IMG/VR virus record: IMGVR_UViG_3300037454_000146
Location: 32,001-96,000 of that record
Strand: one strand, 5' to 3'
DNA: 64,000 nucleotides
From: a virus
In this document: positions 1,728 through 54,782 of the stretch, one piece after another
How the letters are laid out: each line of letters starts with the position of its first letter
Position numbering within the stretch: position 1 is the first letter of the stretch
Notes under the pieces: model-generated
Seen by the model: only the letters and a program-made list of their open reading frames with translations
Told to the model about the DNA's origin: nothing
Database searches by the model: none
Position numbers and translations under genes: made by a program

Positions 1728-1900
1728 CGAGAATTGAAACCTTCACAGGTATTTCTTACTGCTTCAACGTATATGCTTTTGTGGTTATAAAACACACTAC
1801 TCACAAGTTCTTGTACACTCCACAGTCGTAAATTCCCGAAATAGCCTTCGGTACATACTTATATTTTGCTTTCATTATGCAATTGTATAAGTTATTGCAT
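1728..1900 (-). ncRNA. Putative TnpB omega/right-end RNA scaffold region
   Basis: In known TnpB systems the guide RNA spans the 3' end of tnpB and the right element end. Here a 147-nt ORF-free tail follows the tnpB stop and contains the hairpin CCGAAGGCTATTTCGG followed by GAATTTACGACTGTGGAG. Extent and guide position were not determined. Confidence 0.35.
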
Positions 1901-3035
1901 CTCTAAGATTCAGACTGGCATTAAAATCCCTATCTGCTACATACCCACATTCACAGTGATAAATTCGGTCTGATAGTTGCAGCTTTTTCTTGATATGACC
2001 ACAACAATGACACGTTTTAGATGAGGGATACCATCTATCTACAATTCTCAATTCAATACCATTTTCAAAGCATTTAAATGCTAATTTAGTTCTAAACTGA
2101 TAAAACTTTTGAGATGCTACGGCTTTTGCAATATGTTTGTTTTTCATCATCCCTCTTACATTCAAATCTTCAATAGCAATATAAGATGGTTTGGTTTTCA
2201 CTATCTCGGCTATTACTTTATTAATGTAATCGGTGCGGATGTTATTTAACTTATTATAAAGCCTTTGTACTTTTAGCTTTTGTTTTTGTATATTTTTTTG
2301 AGTAGCCCCTCCTTTCTTATTTTTATCATATTTACGAGAAAGACACCGTTGTTCTCTACGCAGACGTCTTTCAATCTTTTTGATTTTTTCTGACTTGTTA
2401 ATATTTGCGTATAATTGACCATTTGACAGAATCGCGAAATCCTTTAAACCCAGATCAATTCCAACACCTTCGTTGTTGCAAACTGTAGGTTCTATAGAAG
2501 GAATATCTACGAGGACAGACACATAATATCTACCAGCTTCAACAGATATAGAGCCGCTTTTAATAATTAGTCCGCTTCGAGTTGTTGGAATATATCCTTT
2601 CTCTTTAACGCGCACCCATCCTAATGTTGGAATATTGATTCTATGTCTTTCACATCTACAATCTTTTGAATTATTCTTCACAAAATACATTGTGACATTA
2701 GATCTCCCTTTCTTCTTAAAACGAGGATAACCACTTCGATTTTTAAAAAACCTCATAAAAGCTGCATACCCATTTTCAATAGATTTTTTAACTGCTTTTG
2801 AATATACTTCTTTAATCCATTTTTTATCAGAATTGTTTGGGATATACTCATTGTTCAACCATACACTAAATTCCTTGCCCGTAACAAAGTCTTTGTTTTT
2901 AAGATATAGTTCTTTATTGTAAGCAAGATAAAAATTATAAATAAATCTACAGGTATTAATCGTTTTGTCTATTTTATTCTTTTGCTCTAATGTAGGATTG
3001 ATTTCCGTCTTAAAACTCTTAAATATTTTCATCAT
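1875..3035 (-). CDS. tnpB: TnpB RNA-guided endonuclease (RuvC-like, OrfB_IS605 with Zn ribbon)
   Basis: 386 aa. RuvC motifs are GIDLGLKDFAILSNG (D), IAIEDLNVRGM (E) and ADRDFNASLNL (D). The zinc ribbon is CHCCGH...YHCECG. N-terminus is INPTLEQKNKIDKTINTCRFIYNFYL. Confidence 0.9.
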   Translation of the reverse strand: MMKIFKSFKTEINPTLEQKNKIDKTINTCRFIYNFYLAYNKELYLKNKDFVTGKEFSVWLNNEYIPNNSDKKWIKEVYSKAVKKSIENGYAAFMRFFKNRSGYPRFKKKGRSNVTMYFVKNNSKDCRCERHRINIPTLGWVRVKEKGYIPTTRSGLIIKSGSISVEAGRYYVSVLVDIPSIEPTVCNNEGVGIDLGLKDFAILSNGQLYANINKSEKIKKIERRLRREQRCLSRKYDKNKKGGATQKNIQKQKLKVQRLYNKLNNIRTDYINKVIAEIVKTKPSYIAIEDLNVRGMMKNKHIAKAVASQKFYQFRTKLAFKCFENGIELRIVDRWYPSSKTCHCCGHIKKKLQLSDRIYHCECGYVADRDFNASLNLRDAITYTIA

Positions 3036-19413: not shown

Positions 19414-19848
19414 TGGGAGTTCACCAGTAATTTGGTCAGGATTCAAACTCTTTAATCCAGTGGACGGAACTAAGGGTACGATTTTTCTGCTTTCTCCACG
19501 CTTGCAGTAGCGCAAAACAATAGGGGAGAATCCTCTTTGAAACCAACGCATTTCTGCGCCTATGGACTATATCTTTGTGGTGTTACGCCACAGCTTCTTT
19601 TAGTCTCTGAACCTTCCCTTGCGGGCTTGGCTGCTGATTAACCGTTAAACAACCTTTAGCTTTTGAGCATGGGTTATCCGCATAATTTTTTCTGCTTTCG
19701 CAACATTCACGCTTGCAACCAGTGGTTGCTACGTTGTAGTCTACGCGGCTTTGGGTACTTCCAGCAATTAAAAAGCTCATTTGTGAGGGACGTATCACCC
19801 CGCAACAATTTCGTAACAATGCGAGGTTAGGCATATTCGGTTAGGTTT

Positions 19849-22362
19849 ACCTATCCCTTTGAAGCTGCCGACAGCGGCGAGCCCTGTAAGTAAAGTCGGG
19901 AGTGTCCCGAACTTGTCGATGATTTTTGTCAGTATCTCTAAAAACTCTTTGGCGGTGTCTACCACGCCCTTAATAAAGTCGCTACCTACGACCGTCTGAG
20001 CGAGGTCTTGGTATGCCGCCTTTAAGCTGTCAATAGAATACTGAATCGACTTCGCGTATTCTTCTTGCTCGCGACGTGCAGAGCCCGCAGAACCCTCGGC
20101 GGTCTTGTAAACCTTTTCAAGCAACTCGCCGTTTTCGAGGATTGCCGCACCTATATTCGACTGACGTTTGCCAAATAGCTGCTCAAGAACTGAGCTTCGC
20201 GAGAGGTCATCAAGTTGACCCCACACCTTAGAGATTTCGAGAAGAATCTGATATGTTGATTTATATGTTGTGTCGTCAAGCTGAATGTCTACGCCTGTAA
20301 GCGCAAGCATCTGCTGTCTGAGCTTCGATATATTTTCAGCCGCACCCTCTGCATCCTCACCAATCTGTTCAAGCTCTGTCTTGGTTGAACGGAGACGAAG
20401 TGATACGGTTTTGATGCCCTGTCCGACAGTGGTCGGGTCTTGGGCGACAGTGTTTGCCGTGGTGATAAGCGCTATACTTTCGCTCAGAGTGTTATTTCCA
20501 GCCGCTAACGCGGAAGCAGAGCGTTTGAGAGCCTCACCTATACCACCAGAAGATATTGCGAAGTTATTGCCGACTTCGTTAAATTTGTCTACAATTTCTA
20601 TCGAGTTCTGCGCCTCTATATTAAAGGCTTTCATCGTAGACACTAAATCTTCTGCCGCTTGTGTTTCAGTTATGCCGTCGCCGACATTCTGATAAAGTAT
20701 CGCAACCTTACCGAGCTCCTCCGCGTCGGGCAAAGATTCACCCAGTCGTGCAAAGGTGCTTGTGGCGTTGATTACGTCGGTTATGCTCGCACCGAGCTCT
20801 TTGGCGGTATTGCCCGCAGACTTCTGAAATTTTCTGAAATCTTCTTCGGTCGCTTCAGTAACCTTGCGAAGTTCAACCATTGCCGTGTCAAGCGCCGTTA
20901 CCTCGTTTACCATATCTCTAATCTGCCTCTTGACAAAATTAAAGACCATATTCGCGGTAATGTAGCTCGACATTAGTTTGAATGAATTTAAGAATTTACC
21001 CCAAGCACTTTCACCTTTGAGTCCTGCGGCTTCAGCCTCTTTACCAAAGATGCGGAACTCCTCGCCAAGATGTTTAACTTCACTCGCGCTCAAATCCGCG
21101 CCTTTCGCCATACGAGATGTCAAGTCCGCCCACTTGGAGGCGAAAGTTGTGCCGTCAGACATTTGCTTGGTAGAATCTATGGCTCTCTTATTAGCAGAAG
21201 CATACGCTTGCATATCTGCTGAGAGTTTCTTAATCTTATTAGATAAAGAAGTTTCTCGACTAAGAGCCTTTTCTTCCTTTTGAGCCGCCTTTAAACCATT
21301 GGTAATATCTTGAATGGCTTGGCTTACTTCTCCATATTTCTTACTCCATTCTAAGCCACGACCAGATTCACTTTCAATCCGCTGCAACTCTACGAGATTT
21401 TTACTTGCATTTGCAAGATTGTCACCCAAAGACGATTTCGCGGACTCATCTGATAGAGCATCTATATCTTTTCTTAACGCATTAAGCGTATTATCAAAAT
21501 TTTTAGCTTTGTTAATTGCGTTATCAAATATATTAAAGGAACTTCCAGTCGATTTTAGCGACGTTCCGATATTAGCCGCAGCCGTCTTGAGATTATCAAG
21601 TGCCTTCTGTGCGGATTCCACAGAGCCAACGCCAGACTCTAAATCAATAATGGCGTTACGAGCTGTGGTCAGCGGCTCAATTAAACCACTTTCGATTGAT
21701 TTGTGGCTTGCCTCGAAATTAGCAAGCTCTTTACTTAGTCTTGCTAAATCTTGCTGTATTTTGCCAACGCCCTTGTCAGAATAAGAACCACCAATATACT
21801 CAAACTTTTGACCAGTAGAATCAAGCAAGAAATTAAGTTCTCTAACCTCGCCAGAAGCAGCCTGTATTCTCGCAATTATCTTATTTATACTATCCGCCGA
21901 CTCTTGATCGTTATATTTGCCTGTAACGGTAACAGTACCCAATGATGATAGGCGACTTTGTATTGTAGCCATTGTACGCTCGGCGTTGATTATCCCGTCT
22001 GCATTTGTCGCAACCTTAAACGGCTCAACAAACCTACTATCTAAATCCGCAAGCGTTTTCTTTAAAGTGAGAACTTTGTTTGTTACAGTTTCGACACTCT
22101 TAGCAACATTCTCGATGTTTTGCGCCGATTGTCCAGTACCAGCCTGTATTTCTATTTTGGGAATATCTATTTTCAGTTTTTTAGATATTTCGCTAACTTG
22201 ATTTTGCAGAGTAGCCAAACTGTTTGTGTCGAGACTACAAGCTATTGATAATGCTTTGTTGGCATCCAATCGCTTTTTAACTTCTTCTAAATCTTTTTCA
22301 ATTGTACTGACGGTCTTGGGTATGTCCAAACTCGCCACTATTTCAATTCTGTTATCGTCCAT
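19849..22362 (-). CDS. Tail tape measure protein, exon 1 (5' part)
   Basis: Exon 1 is 838 codons and ends ...AAVGSFKGIG at a codon boundary. It contains a TP901-type TMP core (FNEVGNNFAISSGGIGEALKRSASALAAGNNTLSESIALITTANTVAQDPTTVGQGIKTVSLRLR). The ORF-track extension beyond 19849 (KPNRICLTSHCYEIVAG) is intron read-through. Confidence 0.85.
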
Positions 22363-24075: not shown

Positions 24076-25167
24076 TTATTCTGCGTATTTCCAGATGCAA
24101 TTGGCATATATTTCTTTCTTATTCTGACAACATAGTGACACATAATAAGAATTATATCCATTTTGTTTTATTTCTGAGAGCGATGCATATTGATTTAATA
24201 AAACATTATTCATATCATATTGCTCATATTTAATAGCGTTCTGTTGCGATTGCAATTCTTGATAATATAAACGGTCATTCTCCAAATTTTCGGTCGATTC
24301 ATTTTCGTATCTCCACACATAACCAAAAGCAGTATCAACCATTCTCCTACAACAAGACGAAATCAGCGATCTGTTTGTATAACCAGTTTTATCTTCAATT
24401 TCTCTAATTGAATTAAAACTACAAATTAGATTCATACCCATATCGTATTGATTAATTTTTAATCTTTGAGCCTTTTCATTAGCATAATCCAAGCGTTTTT
24501 GTAACAACTCATCAGAATAATCTTCCTCTTTAATCCATATAAATCCTTTATAAGAACGCTTAATACCACTTGCTACCGCTGACACACAGCTATGAATATA
24601 GCCATCTTGTTCAGCCTCTGTCAATGAATTGTATTTATGAAGTATTTCTCCACTATCTTTATCTATTTTATATATAGGACGAATACAACGTTCTTTATTT
24701 CTTTCAGCAATTCCCGTATTATCTTTTGTATAATCAGTTCTTTTCTTTCGAGTGCCAGAAGCCCAAGATTCTTTTTGAGCTTTTCTCATATTATTACAAG
24801 CATCAGCAGGAATTGGAACTCCCAAATGAGCCATTGATTGCCTAAGTCGTGTTTCCTCAGTAATTTCTTTATTTAAATTTCCGCCTTTTTCAATATTAAA
24901 TCCTCTTTTAAGATTTGTAGAATCGTAAAAAGCAATTAATTCAATTTCTTTTGTTTCAGCTTCTTCTTTTGATAAATTATCATACAATATCTCCGAAACT
25001 ATACAATCCCATCCGTTTTTTAATATGAATCTGAAGAAGTGAATATTGTCTTTATACCCTCGACCTCTATCAAACCTTCTTTTCGGGTTTTTCTGACAAG
25101 TGACTCCGATATATACTCGACCATCTGGGACAGTGTGTTTATACACTTTATATTTCTTTTCTTCCAT
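24076..25167 (-). CDS. Free-standing GIY-YIG homing endonuclease with NUMOD3 and three NUMOD1-like DNA-binding repeats
   Basis: The GIY-YIG region is KVYKHTVPDGRVYIGVT...RRFDRGRGY...EEAETKEIELI...GFNIEKGG. NUMOD3-like: EETRLRQSMAHLG. Three repeats are of the type YNSLTEAEQDGY...KGFIW, FNSIREIEDKTGY...FGYVW and YASLSEIKQNGY...ANCIW. Confidence 0.9.
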   Translation of the reverse strand: MEEKKYKVYKHTVPDGRVYIGVTCQKNPKRRFDRGRGYKDNIHFFRFILKNGWDCIVSEILYDNLSKEEAETKEIELIAFYDSTNLKRGFNIEKGGNLNKEITEETRLRQSMAHLGVPIPADACNNMRKAQKESWASGTRKKRTDYTKDNTGIAERNKERCIRPIYKIDKDSGEILHKYNSLTEAEQDGYIHSCVSAVASGIKRSYKGFIWIKEEDYSDELLQKRLDYANEKAQRLKINQYDMGMNLICSFNSIREIEDKTGYTNRSLISSCCRRMVDTAFGYVWRYENESTENLENDRLYYQELQSQQNAIKYEQYDMNNVLLNQYASLSEIKQNGYNSYYVSLCCQNKKEIYANCIWKYAE

Positions 25168-31697: not shown

Positions 31698-32945
31698 TTA
31701 ATCGTTATTTCCATATCTCTCGAAGATGTCGCCATAGGGCGAAACCTTTGTGGGAGTTGCGCCAACCGAGAATTTGATTGATTCGGTCTTGGTTGACTTG
31801 TTGTCATTAAGGGCGAATGTACTCATAGCAAACTTGCCAACGAGAATCATACACTCCTTATCAAGCTGTTCAAGGTCATAATCATTGGATTTAGCCTTAA
31901 GCTCGTTGTACTCGGGCATTTCGCCAATGCGACCGTCGTACTTGGAGAAGATTTCGTTCTCTGCCTTTTCTCTCTCAGCCTTTTCAGCCGCGATCTTAAA
32001 GGGAGTAAGAATCTCAATCTGCGAATTGAGGTCAGCAATCCGAGCCTCATATTCGGCGTTCTTAATCGTAAGAGCGTCGATTGCGACAAGAGAATCGTTG
32101 TAAAGCGCCTCGTAATCTACGGGTGCTTCCTCCGCGCTGTTGGTCGTTGTCTCAGGGTCAGTTGCTTCAGATTCATTTTCATTTGAAAAAGCCTCGGGCT
32201 CTGTTCCCTCAGTGACTTCCGTCTCCTCGGATTCGTTTACAATTTCCTTGTTCTCGTCCATGTTTTCACCTTCCTCATCTCCAAAAGCAAAGACTTCGGA
32301 CATAGCCTGTTTCATTTCGTTCATCTTTATTGCGAAATCGTCCGCGCTAAAGTTAATGGGAGTTACGTCTGCGGATATAAAGCAAGGCTCTACATTCTCC
32401 TCGCGATTATCTGATTTGTAAAGCAGACAGAGAGCACTAAACTCAAAGTCGAGTACCTCAATGAAATTACTATCTTCCTCAAGAGGACGGTACTGAGCAC
32501 AGTTTACTTCCATTGACTGATTCCACCAAACTTCGTCAGAATAAATTGTCTCTTTGAGCTCGGGGTATCTGCCAGTCCATAGAATCGCCTCGCAAGTAAG
32601 ATATTCAACATCAGTGCCATACTCATTAATGGTTTCCCACTCAAAAGTATCTGCCTTTACAACGCCAAAAGGAACGCAAAGTGATTTGATAGACCAATCT
32701 TCCCAATCTATGTACATATCGTGTCCGCCAATGCGATACTCTCCATTCTCGTCCTTAAAAAGATGAGCAACGACAGGCGCATAATTTAGTGAATTGAGAT
32801 GAGCCTCAACTACATCACGGCTAAAATAAGACATATTGCGATTCTTGCCTGTAGCCATTACCTTAATCTTAACAAGCGTAAACTCGCTATTAAGCTCCTC
32901 AAGTACGGTAAATTTCGTAGATGAATTAATGCTAAACTTATCCAT
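31698..32945 (-). CDS. Scaffolding protein (possibly protease-scaffold fusion)
   Basis: 415 aa. A globular N-terminal domain is followed by a very acidic E/T/S linker and a C-terminal coiled coil (ADLNSQIEILTPFKIAAEKAEREKAENE). Follows the portal gene. Confidence 0.55.
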   Translation of the reverse strand: MDKFSINSSTKFTVLEELNSEFTLVKIKVMATGKNRNMSYFSRDVVEAHLNSLNYAPVVAHLFKDENGEYRIGGHDMYIDWEDWSIKSLCVPFGVVKADTFEWETINEYGTDVEYLTCEAILWTGRYPELKETIYSDEVWWNQSMEVNCAQYRPLEEDSNFIEVLDFEFSALCLLYKSDNREENVEPCFISADVTPINFSADDFAIKMNEMKQAMSEVFAFGDEEGENMDENKEIVNESEETEVTEGTEPEAFSNENESEATDPETTTNSAEEAPVDYEALYNDSLVAIDALTIKNAEYEARIADLNSQIEILTPFKIAAEKAEREKAENEIFSKYDGRIGEMPEYNELKAKSNDYDLEQLDKECMILVGKFAMSTFALNDNKSTKTESIKFSVGATPTKVSPYGDIFERYGNND

Positions 32946-36476: not shown

Positions 36477-37539
36477 TTACAGCACCTCCAAACACTGAGT
36501 CAAAGAGAGCTTCATCATCGCCTTCATACTGCGGTTTCTCAACCTTATACTTTGCCATTTCTTCGTCATACATTCGTGCATAATTGTTTTTTATACCAAT
36601 CATCTTGCACAAATGTCCTAAGAAATAAACCGTAATATACTTTACAATGCCGTCCACATCTTTCCATTCAGGATCGGGTTCTGGTATTGGTTTTTCTTCT
36701 TCAAATTTCTTTATCAGCGTTCCAAAACTTTGACTATCAGCAAGAGCATTATCATTGTTTTGTACAGGTTTCAGATTTGCAGAACCAAGTAATGACTGGA
36801 ATGTGTCCATAGCGTCTTTGACTTTGCCACCCGTTTGTTGTGCTATTTGAATATTCAACTGAGCTATACAAAGATTTTTGAACAATTCTTCTTGTGCCTT
36901 TGTCTTTGCTTCGCATCGTGCTGTCCAGTCATCATATTGTTCTTGCAAGAATTTGTATTGTTCCATACTATATCCCATACCAAACATAGATATAGTTTTC
37001 TTCCGCACCTTTAAATCTGCAAGGTCGTCTTTGGCATCTATCAAATCTTCTGCGTCGTTTATGTTGACACTCGCCCTTTCTTTGATAGTATCAAGATATG
37101 TTGTGCCTCTTTGTTTATACTGAGGAAGTTGCATCTTACTCGGATATGCTCCTATACGCGATCTATCAGATGATATTTTTCTGCACGAAGCCAATATATC
37201 ATCTGCATAATACCAGTCGAAAATTTGACACATACGGTCAACAGCTTTTTCTTCATTGCTCGAATAAAAATCCGTTAATGTATGAAAATATTTATCTACG
37301 CAAGTTTTACATATTGTAGTATAACCGCCATTTCCCGCAAATAGAGGACTATTTGAAAAAGGGAAGTTGCCCTTTTGCTTTGTGTATTTTTTGCCGCAAC
37401 AAGTACAATAAAACTCTGTTCTTTCTTCTTCTGCCATTATACGTCCAACTTGGACATTCTTATCTATTTTAGTTTTAGAAGTGCGAGAATTTGCTGTTTT
37501 CTTCGTACTTCCTGTGTTACCTCTCGGCACTCCACTCAC
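36457..37539 (-). CDS. Candidate terminase small subunit / DNA-recognition protein
   Basis: 360 aa directly upstream of and overlapping terL. Has a basic N-terminus and a Cys4 motif (CTCCGKKY...CKTC). Assignment is by position only. Confidence 0.4.
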   Translation of the reverse strand: MSGVPRGNTGSTKKTANSRTSKTKIDKNVQVGRIMAEEERTEFYCTCCGKKYTKQKGNFPFSNSPLFAGNGGYTTICKTCVDKYFHTLTDFYSSNEEKAVDRMCQIFDWYYADDILASCRKISSDRSRIGAYPSKMQLPQYKQRGTTYLDTIKERASVNINDAEDLIDAKDDLADLKVRKKTISMFGMGYSMEQYKFLQEQYDDWTARCEAKTKAQEELFKNLCIAQLNIQIAQQTGGKVKDAMDTFQSLLGSANLKPVQNNDNALADSQSFGTLIKKFEEEKPIPEPDPEWKDVDGIVKYITVYFLGHLCKMIGIKNNYARMYDEEMAKYKVEKPQYEGDDEALFDSVFGGAVNGGEKD

Positions 37540-38450
37540 TCCTTTAACTCATTATCTAATATCTCAGAGATATTAGAATATTCATAATATGGTATGCGAA
37601 TAAGCTTAATGCCATTATCCTTGCAATATTTATCTTTAATAGCATCATGCATTTGTATTTTTTCAAACTCTTTTTCCGCCCATTCACCGCCTCTACCAGC
37701 GAAATCAATAGGCATCATGTGATGTCTCCCATCAAACTCACACAACGTATTATTATCAGGCAAATAGAAATCGAATGGCAACATATCTTTATCAGCACAC
37801 TCTACAAAGCGTTTTTGTTCTTCAAAACGAATATTGTGTTCTTTAAGATATTCTGCAATTCTCAATTCGCCCTTGCTTCGATTAGCACAACCACAACTGA
37901 TAATGTTTTCGGATTTTAGATTACTACCAGTCACAACAGTCATATTCCCACAGTCGCAAAGACAATTCCAAGCTGGCTCTTTTCCAATATTGCTGGCTCT
38001 ACTAATAACCGTAAGAAAATTATATCTATTGCCTGTAATATCAATAAAATGTGTTTCCCTATTTCTGTCTTTTACATAGCATCCGCAAGAACGCGTTTCA
38101 CCATCGCGAAGATTACACCCTTGCACTACAGTTTCATTACCACAGTCACATATGCAACGCCACATTGGTTGGATTCCTTTGTTAGCTTCTCTGTTCAACA
38201 CAACAAGCCTTCCGAATCTTTTGCCCGTAAGGTCAATTAAATTGTTTTTACTTCTTTGACTTGTCGCTTCTCTGTTATAACAGCCACATGACTTAGTATG
38301 CCCATTTTTTAAGTTTCCACTTGCAACTACACAAGTATTACCACAATCGCATAAGCAATTCCATGCGGTTAGATGTCTTTTATTCTCGGCTCTACTAACA
38401 ACGGTCAATCTACCAAATTTCATCCCAGTTAAATCAATAAACTTTGCCAT
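37536..38450 (-). CDS. Putative free-standing homing endonuclease: three Zn-ribbon DNA-binding repeats plus PD-(D/E)xK (Vsr/EDxHD-like) nuclease domain
   Basis: Three repeats of D(L/I)TG.(R/K)(F/Y)(G/N)(R/F)L(T/V)V...W.C.CDCGN...V....L..G...SCGC. The C-terminus LPFDFYLPDNNTLCEFDGRHH...KIQMHDAIKDKYC fits a D...E.D..H/K endonuclease core. Confidence 0.6.
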   Translation of the reverse strand: MAKFIDLTGMKFGRLTVVSRAENKRHLTAWNCLCDCGNTCVVASGNLKNGHTKSCGCYNREATSQRSKNNLIDLTGKRFGRLVVLNREANKGIQPMWRCICDCGNETVVQGCNLRDGETRSCGCYVKDRNRETHFIDITGNRYNFLTVISRASNIGKEPAWNCLCDCGNMTVVTGSNLKSENIISCGCANRSKGELRIAEYLKEHNIRFEEQKRFVECADKDMLPFDFYLPDNNTLCEFDGRHHMMPIDFAGRGGEWAEKEFEKIQMHDAIKDKYCKDNGIKLIRIPYYEYSNISEILDNELKE

Positions 38451-39692: not shown

Positions 39693-40721
39693 CTATTTTA
39701 TATCAGCAATACCCTTATTTTCTTGCTGTATAATGCCATCTGCGCTAAAGTATTTACCAAAGTCATCAGCCGCAGAAGCATCGTTGTAGTGGCTAATCAT
39801 TTCTACAGACTCCCACTTGAAAAATTCTTTTATAACTTCTGACGGTATGTTCATTTGAACGAGCTCGGTACACAATGCGTGTCTAAGAGCATGAAAATAG
39901 AAAGGACAACCGAGAATCTGAGTAAACTCATCTTTCCAATTCTCAATATCTGTTCTCTGTTCCCAAACGTCGCCGCGCTTTATAACAAGAACCCACTCAC
40001 TGTCAATACCTAATTCTTCACGCTTCTTGCGCCATAAATCCATATAGGTATCAACTTTATTCATTACATACTTGTTTATCTGTTTGCCACGCACACCACG
40101 ACCTTTGGCTCTTACCTTATCTGTTTTATAAAGGCAACCAAACTCTAAGTGGTCTGTGTTAAAGTATTCCATTTTCATTTGAAGCAGTTCTGCCTTACGC
40201 ATACCTGAATAAGCAAGAATTGCAATGCAAACAGCCCTATCATATTCTTCACGTTTTACAAGTTCATCAAGTAACTTCTGCACCTGTTCTGTAGAAAGCA
40301 CAGTCTTTTCTCTGACGGCTTCATTTACAGGCGACTCAATTTTCTTGATAATACTGCGGTAATCTTCGTAACCTTCTTCCTCGTCCAATATGTTCTCGAT
40401 ATAATTGGAAAGGGAAGAAATTGTGGATTTAACTCGCCTTATCCTACGAGGACTCCATTTCCACACATTAAGAGCATGATTCTGAAATCTCGCAAAGTCA
40501 CGTTTACTAATCTTGATAAATTCCTTATTGGCGTTTTCCTCTAAATTCCAAACAAAGAATATTTCAAGGTCAGAATTATATGCAAAAATAGTCTTAGGAC
40601 TTCTGTCAATTGAAGCAAGGTAATCAAGAAAGTCTTTGCTCAACTGAACATTTTCGGGATTAATCTGCTTAATCTTTTCATCGCTTGTAATCTTGTTGTA
40701 AACCGTTGATCTGCCTTCCAT
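39693..40721 (-). CDS. int: Tyrosine recombinase / phage integrase (internal copy)
   Basis: Has an N-terminal SAM-like core-binding domain. Catalytic residues are in SGMRKAELLQM (R), FHALRHAL (H-x-x-R) and MISHYND (Y). Confidence 0.85.
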   Translation of the reverse strand: MEGRSTVYNKITSDEKIKQINPENVQLSKDFLDYLASIDRSPKTIFAYNSDLEIFFVWNLEENANKEFIKISKRDFARFQNHALNVWKWSPRRIRRVKSTISSLSNYIENILDEEEGYEDYRSIIKKIESPVNEAVREKTVLSTEQVQKLLDELVKREEYDRAVCIAILAYSGMRKAELLQMKMEYFNTDHLEFGCLYKTDKVRAKGRGVRGKQINKYVMNKVDTYMDLWRKKREELGIDSEWVLVIKRGDVWEQRTDIENWKDEFTQILGCPFYFHALRHALCTELVQMNIPSEVIKEFFKWESVEMISHYNDASAADDFGKYFSADGIIQQENKGIADIK

Positions 40722-40774
40722 TCAATCATCTCCTTAAAATCAATTTTCTCCACGAAATTACCTTTAATACAATA

Positions 40775-41428
40775 AAGAGGAGTAAATAAATGCTTGTGGC
40801 TTTGCAGGACTTATCCTGAGTACCTACTGCTGCAAGCACAGCGGAGAGTACGGTTTTCATCTCTCGTAGAATCCTAAAACTCTACCCTCTATTTGGTCAC
40901 ACCAGACGGTGACGCTCCGTCCTTTTCGCCTTGAAAGGGCGATGTCCTTACTAATCATAGACGATGGTGCGATAATGCGCAGGTTTGCTACTTGTCCGTA
41001 ACCTACCAATGCGCAGGTTTGCCTTTCCACATTAGGTTGTGGCGACCATTAAAAGACCTTGTGTAGTCAGCTTGTAGGCATAACAGAGGCTTACAAGGTA
41101 CATAAAACCTCGGATTTTGCGACAACAATTTAATCGTGAAGTTACTCTCCGAAGCTTGCTTTGGTGCGGATTCCAAGTCGTGACCTCAAAATCCACATGG
41201 GCGGTGTATTATAACTGACCACCGCCTTGCCAGTGTCGGTTCTCCCGTCAGGAGGAGTGGTGAGCAATCTCGGATGTGCGCCGAGGACTTCCGCTTTTTA
41301 TCGCGTTGCTTTACTACCAAGCTCATTGCCCATACGGGGCTTCATCATGCCCCGTCCCGTAATTTATTACTCGCCACAGCTTTCAGGCGAGAATTATTCC
41401 GCAGCCGACTAATGCCGACCGTTAATAA
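40775..41428 (-). ncRNA. Candidate large structured non-coding RNA (class unassigned; ROOL/GOLLD-type ornate RNA is one hypothesis)
   Basis: - About 650 nt with no RBS-preceded ORF.
- Visibly more GC-rich than its flanks.
- Many local hairpins, for example 41334-41355 and 41200-41226.
- Helix 41166-41172 / 41190-41196 has a U.G pair only on the minus strand (C.A on the plus strand).
- The locus ends in a long bulged GC-rich helix (40792-40841) followed on the minus strand by UUUAUUU, a terminator just upstream of int. Confidence 0.45.
40974..41022. repeat. Two copies of a 15-nt direct repeat AATGCGCAGGTTTGC
   Basis: Exact copies at 40974-40988 and 41008-41022, inside the structured locus. 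Confidence 0.9.
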
Positions 41429-41842
41429 TCAAAATGCCCCATCGAAAATATCACGTTTTACTTTAAACGGCACAATCTTTGCGTGTAGAGGCAACGTAAC
41501 TTCTTCCGCCGATTTCTCAACAAAATAAAGTACATCATCCACGTAAGCATCGGGGTTGTCCAACGCCTTTTCACAAATCATCTCTGCGCTATCAAAAAGA
41601 GTGATAAGCATATTTCCGTCCTGTGCCTGAACGTCATCATACGCCGCCTCCAAAAATTCAGGGCGCATTGCTATAGACACTCCTCCAATTGTATACTGGT
41701 TGAGCAGTTGGCAAATTCCCATTGCGTTTTCCCAGCTCACAATCAAGCCAGCAACGCCATTTGACATTGCGCAACTTATAAACTCTGTGGCGAAATCCCT
41801 GTAGTCAATAAACGTTTTGCACTGATTATCGTTGATTCTCAT
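41429..41842 (-). CDS. Hypothetical protein
   Basis: 137 aa with an ATGA overlap to the upstream gene. Confidence 0.55.
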   Translation of the reverse strand: MRINDNQCKTFIDYRDFATEFISCAMSNGVAGLIVSWENAMGICQLLNQYTIGGVSIAMRPEFLEAAYDDVQAQDGNMLITLFDSAEMICEKALDNPDAYVDDVLYFVEKSAEEVTLPLHAKIVPFKVKRDIFDGAF

Positions 41843-43667: not shown

Positions 43668-44474
43668 CTAATTTGAAATTTCACTTAAATCATTAAGATA
43701 AGCATATTCACCATATAACTCGATAGCCTTATCGTTATACGCTTTTGCAGCATCATATAACGTTTCAAAACAGCCTAAACTCAATCTCTTGTTTTTAAAT
43801 CCAATGCGAGCTACAAACTTTTTAATAGATTTGTGATAAGAAACACCTTTAATATTAGTAGAAGAATAAGCAGACAAACCTTTATTATAATTATTCTTCT
43901 CTTGAGTGCATATTCTCAGATTGGATTTCCTATTATCCATTGTATTGCCATTTTTATGGTCTACAACCACAGCATTATCATCCAAAACCTTCATTAATAA
44001 TCTTGACAAAGTGATATAGCCACGCCTTTTAACTCCATCTATCTTATTATAGTCTTTCATTGTTGTACAAAGATATTGCGAGTCGTTTATGCTGCCATCT
44101 TTATGCTTTATCCTTTTATGATTTATATGCCAACAAAAATTTTCAACTATCGGTCTATCTTCTATGTCGAAATAAAATTCTTCACCTTTAGAAGTATATC
44201 CAATGCAATAACCATCTTTTTCTTCTATGCGATTTCTTTTCTTCTTGGACATTATATTTTTTTCAATCATAAGACATCCGCATGATATCGTTGGCTTTCT
44301 TTTCCTCTTTAAATTTTTCCCTGTTACATAAGTGATAGTGTGATTAGGACACGAACATTGACACTTCCATTTAGCCTCATGTTCCCCGCTTGGACTAATA
44401 TAATCCTCTGCTTGTTCAAGCACCACTAACCTACCGAAAGTTTTTCCTGTTAAATCTTCTTTAACCTTTACCAT
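43668..44474 (-). CDS. HNH endonuclease with AP2 DNA-binding domain and N-terminal Zn-ribbon repeat (homing-endonuclease type)
   Basis: The N-terminus DLTGKTFGRLVVL...WKCQCSCP...SCGC is the same module as in the 37536..38450 product. The HNH_3-like core is VVDHKNGNTMDNRKSNLRICTQEKN. The AP2-like part is KGVSYHKSIKKFVARIGFKNKRLSLGCFETLYDAAKAYNDKAIELYGEYA. Confidence 0.8.
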   Translation of the reverse strand: MVKVKEDLTGKTFGRLVVLEQAEDYISPSGEHEAKWKCQCSCPNHTITYVTGKNLKRKRKPTISCGCLMIEKNIMSKKKRNRIEEKDGYCIGYTSKGEEFYFDIEDRPIVENFCWHINHKRIKHKDGSINDSQYLCTTMKDYNKIDGVKRRGYITLSRLLMKVLDDNAVVVDHKNGNTMDNRKSNLRICTQEKNNYNKGLSAYSSTNIKGVSYHKSIKKFVARIGFKNKRLSLGCFETLYDAAKAYNDKAIELYGEYAYLNDLSEISN

Positions 44475-52734: not shown

Positions 52735-52789
52735 TAAAAACCACCTTTCCTAAATTGTTTGCCTATTTATAGCCTTCTATCACCATTTT

Positions 52790-52835
52790 CGCCATTTTTG
52801 TCACTTTTTTTGGGTTTTCTCGCCATTTTTGTCAC
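52790..52835. repeat. Two 15-nt direct repeats CGCCATTTTTGTCAC in the leader of the initiator-like gene
   Basis: Copies at 52790-52804 and 52821-52835. They are candidate iterons or an operator. Confidence 0.8.
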
Positions 52836-53006
52836 CTACCAAAAATGCCCATACGCCCCTAAACATAGAACTAAACTGGTGATTTTTGAGGACTGTCACT
52901 CTTATAGTATATAGTGACCAAGTTGGGGTTCTCCACAAAGTGAATTGAACGTATCATTTCTTTCTCTGTCAGAGCATACCTACCCCGTGCTTCTCTCCTC
53001 AATCCC

Positions 53007-53035
53007 ATTATAACACTAATTTCTTACTTTGTCAA
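53007..53035 (-). promoter_or_regulatory. Conserved extended -10 promoter for the leftward operon
   Basis: Minus strand reads TTGACA-aagtaagaaattagtgT-TATAAT. Confidence 0.6.
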
Positions 53036-53806
53036 GCCCCTAAAAGAAAAAAAAATAGCCCTTACTGTAATAGTAGCCGAGAGTTCTTTGGTAGCCCATA
53101 ATAATAAATATTTATTTTTCTCTTAAAGGTTGCCCAACTCGTTCCGCAACGGCGAGAATTGAAGTAGCCACTACTCCGCAAAAGGCTCGTAAAAGTCGCC
53201 ATTCGCCCCAAAGCCCAGTATTTCGCCCAAAAGCAGGGATTCCGTCAGAGTTTGCTCCGCAATTGCTGGGATTTGCATCTTCTTTTAAAGGCTATAATAG
53301 GGGATTTGTCCGAAAATGACAGCGATGAAAAATGGCATAAATTTCGCAGACTTTAAAAATTTAATGGACAGTGCGATTCATCACCTATGCCCTGCCTGTG
53401 CTGCGGAATCAGCCCCTAAAATGTAAATATAGCCCCTGATCCATCGCCAAAAAACCGCGATATATAGCCAAACAATTGATTTGTCCAAATGCAATTGTTT
53501 AAATTCTTATTTTATTAAAGATTCTGTAAAGATTCAAGCTCCAAAATCAGTGGCGAAAAGGTGTAAACTGTTTTTGCTTTACAGGCTTGTAAAGTGGTTT
53601 TAGTTTACAGTTCGCAAAAATGACTATTAATGAAAAGTGAAGAAAATAAGAGTATTAACAATCATAGTCAAGTTATTTTACAATAAAATATGCAATTCCG
53701 ATTTGCTGGTAATAATTCACACTTTTAACAAAGTCTCTTTTTGTATTATAATGGTATTATATATAAAGGGCAGCCTGATATACAAACTGTAAAGCTTGTA
53801 ATATGC

Positions 53807-54031
53807 CTATTTATCGGCGTTTATGACATATTCTGATAGATCAATATTATTATGTATGCAATAGTTTATACAAGCAGTCATAAAAGCAGTACGATTTAGA
53901 TTATTCTTTTTAGCTCCTGAATCAATATAATTAACAATATGCGGTCTAAGATTCATTACAATGCGTTTATAATTATCTTTTATATACTTTTGGTCATATT
54001 TCTTTTTGTCAAATTTATTTTCTTTTTCCAT
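53807..54031 (-). CDS. Small ribbon-helix-helix-like regulator (candidate repressor)
   Basis: Start at MEKENKFDKKKYDQKYIKDNYKRIVMNLRPHIVNYID follows the RBS GGAGG. It is divergent from the operator-bearing early promoter. A similar N-terminal pattern occurs in the 61468..61809 product. Confidence 0.5.
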   Translation of the reverse strand: MEKENKFDKKKYDQKYIKDNYKRIVMNLRPHIVNYIDSGAKKNNLNRTAFMTACINYCIHNNIDLSEYVINADK

Positions 54032-54131
54032 GATCCAAGCCTCCAAACGCCTATTTATGGGCAATTATAAAGTTTGTGCAATTTTTTATTGTATTTTTTC
54101 AAATTTATGATTTTTTTGTGCTGATTTATGC

Positions 54132-54280
54132 ACTATGTACATAGTATAAGCTGATCCGCTTACATCCTGAAACAGCCGACAGCCTGAATTTGGCTAGTTA
54201 CCGTTTATGCACTATGTACAAAGTGTGCTATTGTTTGTGAGATATGCACAAATCGCCCAACTTGAAACTATGTACACAGT
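54132..54280. promoter_or_regulatory. Three operator sites with 14-bp core ACTATGTACAnAGT
   Basis: 54132-54145 is ACTATGTACATAGT, a perfect palindrome. 54211-54224 is ACTATGTACAAAGT. 54267-54280 is ACTATGTACACAGT and overlaps the rightward promoter spacer. Confidence 0.7.
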
Positions 54281-54290
54281 GTGGTATACT
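54262..54290 (+). promoter_or_regulatory. Rightward promoter of the plus-strand gene block
   Basis: TTGAAA (54262-54267), 17-nt spacer, TATACT (54285-54290). Confidence 0.6.
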
Positions 54291-54782
54291 AAAATCACAG
54301 AAGAACGAAAGACACAAACAAAGCGGTCAGACAAACCGCAAAACATAAGCCAGTAAAGGTTAGCCAGAGTGACCGACAAATGACAGTAACTTGAAAATTA
54401 AATAGCTCCGAATCGGTAATGTGAAAAGCCGATTGACCGCGAAAAGCTGAAAAAGCAAGTAACGCGATAATAAACAGCCGAAAAGCCTTGACGGGATAAA
54501 GAGTAACTACCTCAAAGTCAAACGCCGATTAAGTGAGATAAAACGCGGAACGCCTAAAGCAAGTACAAAGAATATAAATGGAGCATAACGTAACAAGAGA
54601 TACAACACGCCGATATTTTTTGAAAGTTTTTCACGGCAGTTAAGCCAATCAGAAAAACAGTACAAGTCTATTATATCACGCTTGACTGCACAATGTCAAG
54701 CGATATCTGCCAAACAAGTTCAAGAGCTTGCAAGGCAGTCCAGAACAAGCAAATTAAATTAATATTTTAAGGAGGCATCATT
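54291..54782 (+). other. Roughly 490-nt ORF-free, A-rich and T-poor transcribed leader
   Basis: No ORF with an RBS lies between the promoter and the first gene at 54783. Hairpins include GCGGTcagacaaACCGC, AATCGG...CCGATT and GCTTGACtgcacaatGTCAAGC (around 54680-54703). Confidence 0.5.

Follow-up and report, generated by a model that had tools for sequence, protein, structure and literature searches.

The tRNA region of phage T4 holds tRNA genes together with small stable RNAs that are not tRNAs (species 1 and 2; rnaC and rnaD), and phage tRNA genes are now regarded as weapons against host defenses that destroy tRNAs. Other RNAs imitate the acceptor/T-arm module of tRNA, among them the tRNA-like domain of transfer-messenger RNA (tmRNA), the YrlA Y RNAs, and the tRNA-like structures of plant viruses with their upstream pseudoknots, and these known mimics retain canonical T-loops. 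A tRNA can also be part of a much larger molecule, as in some GOLLD RNAs that hold one nested in their variable region. Here, a 64,000-nucleotide (nt) stretch of viral DNA, hereafter the window (positions 32,001 to 96,000 of IMG/VR record IMGVR_UViG_3300037454_000146), was analyzed for the nature of a long, hairpin-rich gap that an initial annotation, made from the sequence alone, had tentatively compared to the ornate large RNAs of prophages. The gap is probably a mosaic phage island of tRNA and tRNA-like RNA genes, located on the minus strand of a large siphovirus-type Firmicute phage. The island contains one anticodon-bearing tRNA-Glu(UUC) with an altered elbow and two non-decoding, tRNA-derived RNAs, accompanied by several conserved hairpins.

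The gap comprises 707 nt (40722-41428) between the start codon of a recombinase gene (40721) and the stop codon of an upstream gene, orf137 (41429). Its longest open reading frame (ORF) on either strand spans ≤61 amino acids (aa), which bears out the initial description of an ORF-free locus, as does the G+C content (0.47 to 0.50 over 40800-41400, compared with 0.32 to 0.40 in the recombinase gene and ∼0.44 upstream) for the description of a locus richer in G+C than its neighbors. The short perfect hairpins listed in that annotation were all located where they had been placed, one of them (GACGG/CCGTC) being the T stem of a tRNA, and neither a pseudogene nor a fragment of a host gene was found. 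The RNA strand is the minus strand: it carries all the flanking genes and every tRNA of the island and its relatives, and the G·U pairs in covarying helices become C·A if read on the opposite strand. These lines of evidence agree with the strand originally deduced from the helix 41166-41172/41190-41196, which is the acceptor stem of a minihelix. In single-sequence folding, the energy of the stretch is slightly below that of shuffled sequences (z = −2.8 for the minus strand and −3.5 for the plus strand). Because these z-scores are mild, hairpin density proves little alone, and the structures are supported by covariation.

Relatives of the island were collected in two ways. The recombinase protein, used as a query, retrieved 20 viral loci, 4 of which (recombinase 89 to 98% identical) have parts of the upstream stretch in the form of a patchwork; among these four, one hairpin displays obvious compensatory changes. 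A DNA pattern of the conserved core of that hairpin was then searched to obtain more loci from viral contigs and metagenomes; the first version was too loose (119 matches, mostly chance), and a tightened version was used. In 185,579 species genomes, 1 of the 16 matches to the pattern was genuine, a 122-kb contig of an Eubacteriales metagenome-assembled genome (MAG). A scan of viral contigs with orf137 as the anchor returned nothing. After removal of duplicates, 40 distinct oriented islands were available for comparison, and compensatory changes are present among them. Loci are denoted by L numbers, and positions in the minus-strand RNA are denoted r, where r equals 41429 minus the window coordinate. 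The modules of the island, from 5′ to 3′ in the RNA, are as follows.

41334-41421, minus strand: module A, three short hairpins directly past the orf137 stop codon, namely, GGUCGGC..GUCGGCU (41402-41421), CUCGCC..GGCGAG (41370-41391), and ACGGGGC..GCCCCGU (41334-41355), recognized in the sequence
41258-41331, minus strand: module B, a 74-nt tRNA-like cloverleaf ending in ACCA, supported by Rfam and covariation
41162-41257, minus strand: module C, a hairpin, an H-type pseudoknot, and a minihelix ending in ACCA, supported by covariation
41242-41257, minus strand: hairpin of module C, CUCCUCC..GGGAG
41200-41234, minus strand: H-type pseudoknot of module C, in which ACUGRC pairs with the loop GYCAGU of the hairpin GGCGGUG/CACCGCC
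41162-41196, minus strand: minihelix of module C, 12 bp (7 + 5) with a 7-nt loop and an ACCA end; acceptor strands 41166-41172 and 41190-41196
41099-41161, minus strand: module D, a hairpin CUUCGGA..UCCGAGG followed by UUUUAU
41047-41104, minus strand: module E, a hairpin motif of ∼45 nt, type A, followed by a U run
40972-41046, minus strand: module E2, a small hairpin CCACA..UGUGG and a long hairpin (40977-41015)
40894-40971, minus strand: module F, a tRNA-Glu(UUC) variant of 78 nt with an encoded CCA, supported by ARAGORN and Rfam
40789-40893, minus strand: module G, a 3′ trailer with GUAGAG..UUCUAC, GAGAG..CUCUC, and a long bulged helix GCUUG..CAAGC, followed by AUUUAUUU
40730-40784, minus strand: module H, a hairpin CUCCNC..GUGGAG enclosing AAUUG..CAAUU (40743-40784), followed by the ribosome-binding site (RBS) AAGGAG (40730-40735)

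The clearest tRNA of the island is module F. All of its stems are perfect (acceptor, 7 bp; D, 4 bp; anticodon, 5 bp; T, 5 bp), and the 7-nt anticodon loop CUUUCAA includes U33 and A37. The elbow is noncanonical, with a D-loop, AUGAUUAGUAA, that lacks GG and a T-loop, AGCGUCA, in place of UUCRANY. The Rfam tRNA model matches module F with 34.1 bits (gathering score, 29; E = 1e-5; 40897-40971, model positions 1-71), a match that appears only with lax filters and is missed by the default ones; canonical phage tRNAs score 44 to 76 bits against the same model. The variant recurs in L077, L151, and L143, where T-loops AGCGUCG and AGCAUCG are found. In L187, a canonical tRNA-Glu (D-loop with GG, T-loop UUCAAUU) has an acceptor stem and an anticodon loop identical to those of module F, and its anticodon and T stems differ in a fully compensated manner. 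Judging from these features, charging is possible, and module F may be both charged and used in decoding. The same slot is occupied by tRNA-Asn in L003 and L021 (75 to 76 bits), by a canonical tRNA-Glu in L058 and L023 (∼60 bits), and by a 63-nt tRNA-like RNA in L061, L187, and L189; elsewhere, the islands of relatives contain tRNA-Met, tRNA-Trp, and shorter tRNA-like RNAs. The locus thus has the makeup of a tRNA cluster, that is, co-oriented tRNA and tRNA-like genes in an ORF-free region, whose slots are filled by bona fide tRNAs in related phages.

Module B is also tRNA derived but cannot decode because its “anticodon” stem has 3 bp, plus one mismatch, and closes an 8-nt loop, GAUAAAAA. A second subtype has a 6-bp “anticodon” stem and the loop CARAGGA, with A at position 33. 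The remainder of the cloverleaf is tRNA-like, with a 7-bp acceptor stem, a D arm with GG, and the T-loop CGCACAU (UGCAAAU in others). The match to the Rfam tRNA model covers the full length (41261-41331; E = 3e-4) at 28.2 bits, just under the gathering score. Among 10 distinct variants, pairing is complete in the acceptor, D, and T stems (160 of 160 cells), 8 of the 16 pairs are changed on both sides, and the observed covariation score was reached by none of 500 shuffles. A dedicated model of module B (R2) finds a single copy in the window (95.7 bits) and scores 85 to 96 bits in 13 loci, compared with ∼35 bits for a canonical tRNA-Asn.

In module C, only the acceptor/T-arm part of a tRNA is recognizable. 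The minihelix has the geometry of the acceptor/T arm, and five of its pairs alternate between G·U and Watson-Crick. In the alignment of the module, 98% of the cells are paired; the R:Y pair of the pseudoknot (46-58) appears as A-U, G·U, or G-C, and hairpin pairs 55-71 and 56-70 show compensatory changes. No tmRNA was detected by ARAGORN, and the tmRNA hallmarks looked for in module C are missing: there is no tag ORF, and the 5′ acceptor strand abuts the T stem directly as a minihelix. At the junction of modules B and C (41250-41262, minus strand), the sequence ACCA-CUCCUCCU is kept wherever module C occurs. This junction includes a CCUCC run that resembles an anti-Shine-Dalgarno sequence and is paired with GGGAG in the hairpin.

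To survey tRNA-like ends across the islands, a pattern consisting of a 5-bp T stem, a 7-nt loop, a 7-bp acceptor stem, and NCCA was applied, and 39 elements were found in 68 kb of islands, compared with a mean of 1.7 in shuffled sequences. The minihelix of module C is among these elements. The canonical tRNAs in the scan have the T-loop UUCRANU, and the tRNA-like elements fall into recurrent classes, YGCAMHU, GUCAYKM, and AGCRUCR. Such recurrent T-loop classes do not look like random decay.

This last observation bears on an alternative explanation, namely, that the locus is a graveyard of decaying tRNA genes set among ordinary terminators and spacers, and that its tRNA-like units are functionless pseudogenes. 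The loss of canonical T- and D-loop nucleotides, the broken anticodon arm of module B, and the Rfam score of the Glu variant, half that of canonical phage tRNAs, would fit such a history, as would the module B of L151, which ends in CACAA instead of CACCA, and the minihelices of L077 and L151, which lack CCA. However, the stems are 98 to 100% paired despite many compensatory changes, and the T and anticodon stems of the Glu variant are wholly different from those of the canonical tRNA-Glu, yet paired. The deviant T-loops YGCAMHU and GUCAYKM recur across loci. Furthermore, L077 and the window share 80% nucleotide identity over r65-535 even though their flanking proteins are only 25 to 35% identical; the RNAs are either strongly constrained or horizontally exchanged. 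Wholesale decay is therefore an improbable account of the locus.

The second property that defines the island is its modularity. BLAST comparison of the 707-nt RNA with the 40 islands shows blocks that come and go independently, with borders recurring at r∼97, 232, 268, 326-332, 457-460, 535, and 640-648. For example, L042, L061, and L148 share only r∼330-460 with the window (modules E and E2 without A to D), L067 and L121 share r∼90-380 or r∼33-270 (modules B and C without E2 to G), and L058 and L144 share r∼326-458 plus r∼481-648. In L187, the order itself is changed, with the 3′ block (module G) ahead of the tRNA-Glu block (module F). Pairwise alignments consist of common blocks that are 90 to 97% identical, broken by clean replacements, with insertions and deletions exactly at the module borders. 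Modules E and E2 are 87 to 97% identical in 17 loci, and no block longer than ∼130 nt is common to all relatives. Altogether, about eight independent modules make up the mosaic. Because the blocks occur in independent combinations, this organization is compatible with an array of separate units and incompatible with a single folded RNA of 650 nt.

The covariation scores of hairpin E, the pseudoknot, and the E2 helices, as well as that of module B, exceed those of 500 out of 500 shuffles. Module A is common to L001, L003, L021, L162, and L193, its third hairpin being replaced by another one in L003 and L021. Module D is present in L001, L143, and L190, with a compensatory change from G-C to A-U in L190. 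Hairpin E consists of P1 (7 bp), a bulged A, P2 (NGC/GCN), an internal loop CUC, P3 (UGU/ACA), and a 6-nt 3′ loop, GACUAC. Across 18 distinct variants, 91% of its cells are paired, 5 of the 7 P1 pairs are compensatory, and none of 500 shuffles attained the observed score; P2 covaries as well, with the A-U of type A replaced by C-G in type B. The internal loops read GCCUCUGU (5′ side) and AAGCKNACYAC (3′ side) and are invariant. A dedicated model (R1) finds one copy in the window (72.7 bits), and Rfam returned no match to this module. Twister, hammerhead, k-turn, T-box, and preQ1 motifs were compared with hairpin E by eye, and none fits. Type-B hairpin E also occurs alone, at L038 (1932-1976) and likewise in L141, L147, L157, and L171, where it immediately follows the stop codon of an HU-like gene and is itself followed by a canonical terminator, with no tRNA nearby; these phages are represented by contigs of 140 to 157 kb and are unrelated to that of the window.

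Toward the 3′ end of the island, the modules are arranged around the tRNA slot. The 3′ end of module E2 is the exact 5′ end of the slot, and module G begins immediately past the CCA of whichever tRNA precedes it. The long hairpin of E2 is closed by two UGCGCA “direct repeats” (two copies of AATGCGCAGGTTTGC on the plus strand), which RNAalifold pairs with each other, with compensatory changes from G-C to A-U and from C-G to U-A. Module G is 80 to 95% identical in L003, L021, L058, L144, L159, L187, L189, and L191. A ribozyme was considered for module G because of its position right behind the tRNA. For HDV-like and hammerhead ribozymes, P1 and the core motifs could not be placed by eye, and Rfam gave no match, so that both candidates were rejected. 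The bulged helix at 40792-40841 and the adjoining UUUAUUU, originally taken as a terminator that creates a discrete 3′ end, do exist, but their role as a discrete end is not supported: a consensus terminator scan calls no terminator within the island, and in relatives, module G continues into another hairpin and tRNA-Met. The RBS of module H belongs to the recombinase gene; in L004, L023, L159, L162, L189, and L191, the module H hairpin precedes tRNA-Met, not a recombinase gene.

The RNA families were searched with cmscan against Rfam, using the gathering score for the whole window and an E value of up to 10 for the region, first as one 1.2-kb piece and then as four pieces of 131 to 269 nt with laxer filters. 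At the gathering score, just two matches occur in the window, to a RAGATH-18 RNA and to a group I intron, and both lie outside the island. The single 1.2-kb piece had no match at an E value of up to 10. Among the four short pieces, the only credible matches were two to the tRNA model (RF00005), each of full length and on the minus strand. No match to ROOL, GOLLD, HEARO, raiA, OLE, tmRNA, or other large or ornate Rfam RNAs was found in the island, even at an E value of up to 10. The cmscan and ARAGORN results thus exclude ROOL, GOLLD, HEARO, raiA, and tmRNA as far as sequence-and-structure models can tell, and the membership in these classes that had been raised for the locus was not borne out. 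The tRNA-like cloverleaf, the pseudoknot with its minihelix, and hairpin E constitute at least three families without an Rfam family match. A blastn search of the region against 50,697 GenBank phage records also gave no match, so no annotation could be drawn from any cultured phage, and descriptions of such tRNA-like RNAs were not found in the literature.

These results also bear on the possibility that the stretch is a single large structured RNA (∼650 nt), whether akin to ROOL/GOLLD or of a new class, with a tRNA nested in a variable region. The stretch is indeed contiguous, ORF-free, G+C rich, and full of helices, its modules are mostly collinear among relatives, and its folding energy is better than that of shuffled sequences. 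However, even the short pieces match no large-RNA model, the modules are found alone (E with E2, B with C, or hairpin E 3′ of an HU gene in unrelated phages), and their order differs in L187. A long-range inverted repeat (41038-41053/41363-41378; 81% over 16 nt), the only long-range complementarity of the stretch, was rejected as a tertiary contact because it is not kept in L003 and because the two modules that it joins are often not both present. A single large RNA is accordingly very unlikely. What holds of the initial annotation is a structured noncoding RNA locus; the single ornate RNA of ∼600 nt does not, given modules that are independent in ∼40 relatives and once change order. The case is cautionary in that a long, G+C-rich, hairpin-dense gap beside an integrase gene resembles a giant RNA and dissolves into cassettes on comparison.

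The island is flanked by the following genes.

39693-40721, minus strand: Xer-like tyrosine recombinase, 342 aa (Pfam Phage_integrase, 1.7e-18)
41429-41842, minus strand: orf137, 137 aa, a phage-only protein family, directly upstream of the island

The window belongs to a siphovirus-like phage that encodes a large terminase (TerL), a portal protein, a tape measure protein, a PhoH-like protein, and several HNH endonucleases, and its nearest cultured relatives are large Firmicute phages with ∼30% protein identity. The island is invariably, in relatives as in the window, at the border between an early/replication block (exonuclease, orf113, and orf137) and a late block (glycosyltransferase, p360, and large terminase). 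An orf137 homolog is upstream of the island in 26 of the 40 loci, and the glycosyltransferase, p360, and TerL are downstream of it, with or without the integrase. The protein orf137 has no match in Pfam, PHROG, or NCBIfam, and its AlphaFold model, a confident one (predicted local distance difference test score, 84.5) has no Foldseek match in the PDB. Against NCBIfam, the recombinase has weak XerC/XerD/XerA-like matches, far below the cutoff; no arm-binding domain and no integron-integrase signature were found in it with Pfam or NCBIfam. The integrase is absent from L077, L151, and L181 and only ∼25% identical in L061, L067, and L146, and in all six the island is kept. Conversely, integrases 97 to 98% identical to that of the window, which adjoins a Glu-like cassette, adjoin an Asn cassette (L003) or a Met cassette (L001 and L002). 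Since the integrase is optional or unrelated in relatives, there is no support for tying the RNAs functionally to the recombinase, be it through attP arm sites, tRNA-dependent lysogeny, or an integron-like array, and none for the link to the integrase that had been suggested from the position of the locus. The recombinase adjoins the RNA island but does not form part of it.

Additional observations concern the surroundings of the island. In the L005-L020 loci, where the recombinase is 64% identical, a syntenic ORF-free stretch of 0.8 to 1.9 kb (L005, 2069-3084; L019, 1391-3300) contains tRNA-Thr and/or tRNA-Met along with a truncated tRNA-like piece with the T-loop UGCAAAU, and an anti-repressor-like ORF lies between this stretch and the recombinase. 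Genes similar to HNH/homing endonucleases are located at 37536-38450, 43668-44474, and 24076-25167 (all on the minus strand); the first two lie no more than 3 kb from the island, which is in line with a region where cassettes are readily exchanged. Within the islands themselves, no homing endonuclease was identified; the one inserted ORF that was checked, in L001, corresponds to a PHROG of unknown function.

The same comparisons make it highly improbable that the stretch is a DNA recombination site, whether an attP with arm repeats and a tRNA-derived core, a site for tRNA-dependent lysogeny, or a set of integron-like cassettes. There is a precedent for phage tRNA genes that are needed for integration, in tRNA-dependent lysogeny (PMC10865867). 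The locus adjoins a tyrosine recombinase gene and combines direct repeats (two copies of AATGCGCAGGTTTGC) with variable tRNA cassettes beside the integrase. Yet the island persists where the integrase is missing or only distantly similar, nearly identical integrases are paired with Glu-like, Asn, or Met cassettes, and the recombinase carries neither an arm-binding domain nor an integron-integrase signature. Covariation shows the “direct repeats” to be paired strands of an RNA helix, and the G·U pairs in the helices point to one strand only. No coupling was seen between integrase specificity and the isotype of the adjacent tRNA. In the genome collection, the hairpin motif occurs in a single record, the 122-kb MAG contig, of which 8 kb around the match was read. 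An integron-like array was rejected on the type of the recombinase and on synteny, the recombinase being co-oriented, downstream of the array, and optional; in the island hairpins, it is the loops that are conserved and the stems that vary, opposite to attC. Finally, the least probable explanation is that the stretch acts as a long structured 5′ leader regulating recombinase expression. It does precede the recombinase gene immediately, in the same orientation, and a hairpin and a weak terminator-like helix stand just ahead of the RBS. In relatives, however, the same modules precede tRNA-Met or the glycosyltransferase gene, and tRNA and tRNA-like genes would be out of place in a leader.

For the island of tRNA and tRNA-like genes, the following mode of expression can be proposed. 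The array would be transcribed with, or after, the upstream genes as one precursor, and host RNase P would cut this precursor at every tRNA-like unit. The minimal bacterial RNase P substrate is a 12-bp acceptor/T stack plus RCCA, and each unit that keeps both is a predicted processing site. Trimming of the 3′ ends to CCA would then release RNAs of ∼35 to 100 nt. The tRNA-Glu variant could still be charged and used. Modules B and C would most likely act through the retained acceptor end and T arm, either as decoys or competitors for proteins that bind or attack tRNA ends or as mere processing punctuation, and the four or five further conserved hairpins could serve as leaders, trailers, or spacers. 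Cassettes would be swapped between phages by recombination in the conserved flanking modules.

Several points weigh against this reading of the locus. Many of the relatives are close, such that part of the “covariation” consists of inherited changes, and the alignments include only 10 to 18 distinct sequences. No good sigma-70 promoter is predicted inside the island on the minus strand, nor is a terminator called there by the consensus scan, and adjacency to orf137 gave no functional clue. Slow gene decay could be under way in the tRNA-Glu variant and in the tRNA-like RNAs. One long precursor might also function as a whole, and a role of the units as mimics is argued by analogy.

A more far-reaching proposal, which must be considered tentative and rather unlikely, is that the non-decoding units form a new class of phage tRNA mimics, selected for the acceptor/CCA end and the T arm, that would act as decoys or sponges and be traded as cassettes, with hairpin E as a new cis- or trans-acting RNA motif. 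As proposed, the class would include the 74-nt cloverleaf with its G55-type T-loop, the pseudoknot with its minihelix, the shorter relatives (54 to 90 nt) found in other islands, and perhaps the tRNA-Glu variant. Possible targets among host factors would be defense toxins that modify the CCA end or cleave tRNAs, the CCA-adding enzyme, synthetases, and RNase P. Relative to phage tRNA genes that counter tRNA-destroying defenses, the island goes one step further: it carries tRNA-derived RNAs that do not decode, with the enzyme-recognized parts (acceptor stem, T arm, and CCA) kept by compensatory changes. If the units are functional mimics, they would represent a new type of small viral RNA in Firmicute phages of the gut and rumen.

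Elsewhere in the window, three regions stand out. The RAGATH-18 RNA (1756-1826, minus strand; 73 bits) is directly 3′ of a transposase-like ORF of 386 aa (1875-3035, minus strand; phrog_506), a pair that looks like a mobile element with an associated RNA inside the phage genome. The group I intron (19544-19830, minus strand; 60.7 bits) overlaps, with its 5′ end, the 3′ end of the tape-measure ORF (19795-22362), and the tape-measure gene is probably split by this intron. A further ORF-poor stretch is found at ∼52.75 to 54.78 kb, so that the genome had been described too strictly as one with almost no intergenic space. Within ∼52750-54780, the genes switch from the minus to the plus strand, the G+C content dips to 27% at 53.5 to 54.1 kb, and two short tandem repeats are present (53868-53890 and 53987-54021); this may be an origin or a regulatory region.

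Compared with the described systems, the island shares with GOLLD and ROOL the phage context, the nearby tRNAs, and the size of the ORF-free stretch, but neither covariance model matches, and the island breaks into independent modules. The relationship to tRNA itself (RF00005) is graded. Module F has the cloverleaf, the anticodon loop, and the encoded CCA but not the G18G19 and T54-Psi55-C56 signature; module B has the acceptor stem, D arm, T arm, and ACCA, although it scores below the gathering threshold and has no usable anticodon arm; and module C is limited to the acceptor/T minihelix. As in the known tRNA mimics, the acceptor/T-arm stack and the CCA end are kept while the decoding part is replaced, and module C even has a pseudoknot beside its minihelix. 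Unlike in those mimics, the T-loops are noncanonical, a tag reading frame and a Ro-binding helix are both lacking, and neither tmRNA (Rfam and ARAGORN) nor any other described Rfam family is matched. In organization, the island is most similar to T4-type clusters: co-oriented tRNAs are mixed with small structured RNAs in an ORF-free region that is richer in G+C than the genome, the region is mosaic among related phages, and the units are expected to be RNase P substrates. It differs from these clusters in that one unit has a proper anticodon loop, whereas the rest are non-decoding and show systematic changes of the T-loop.

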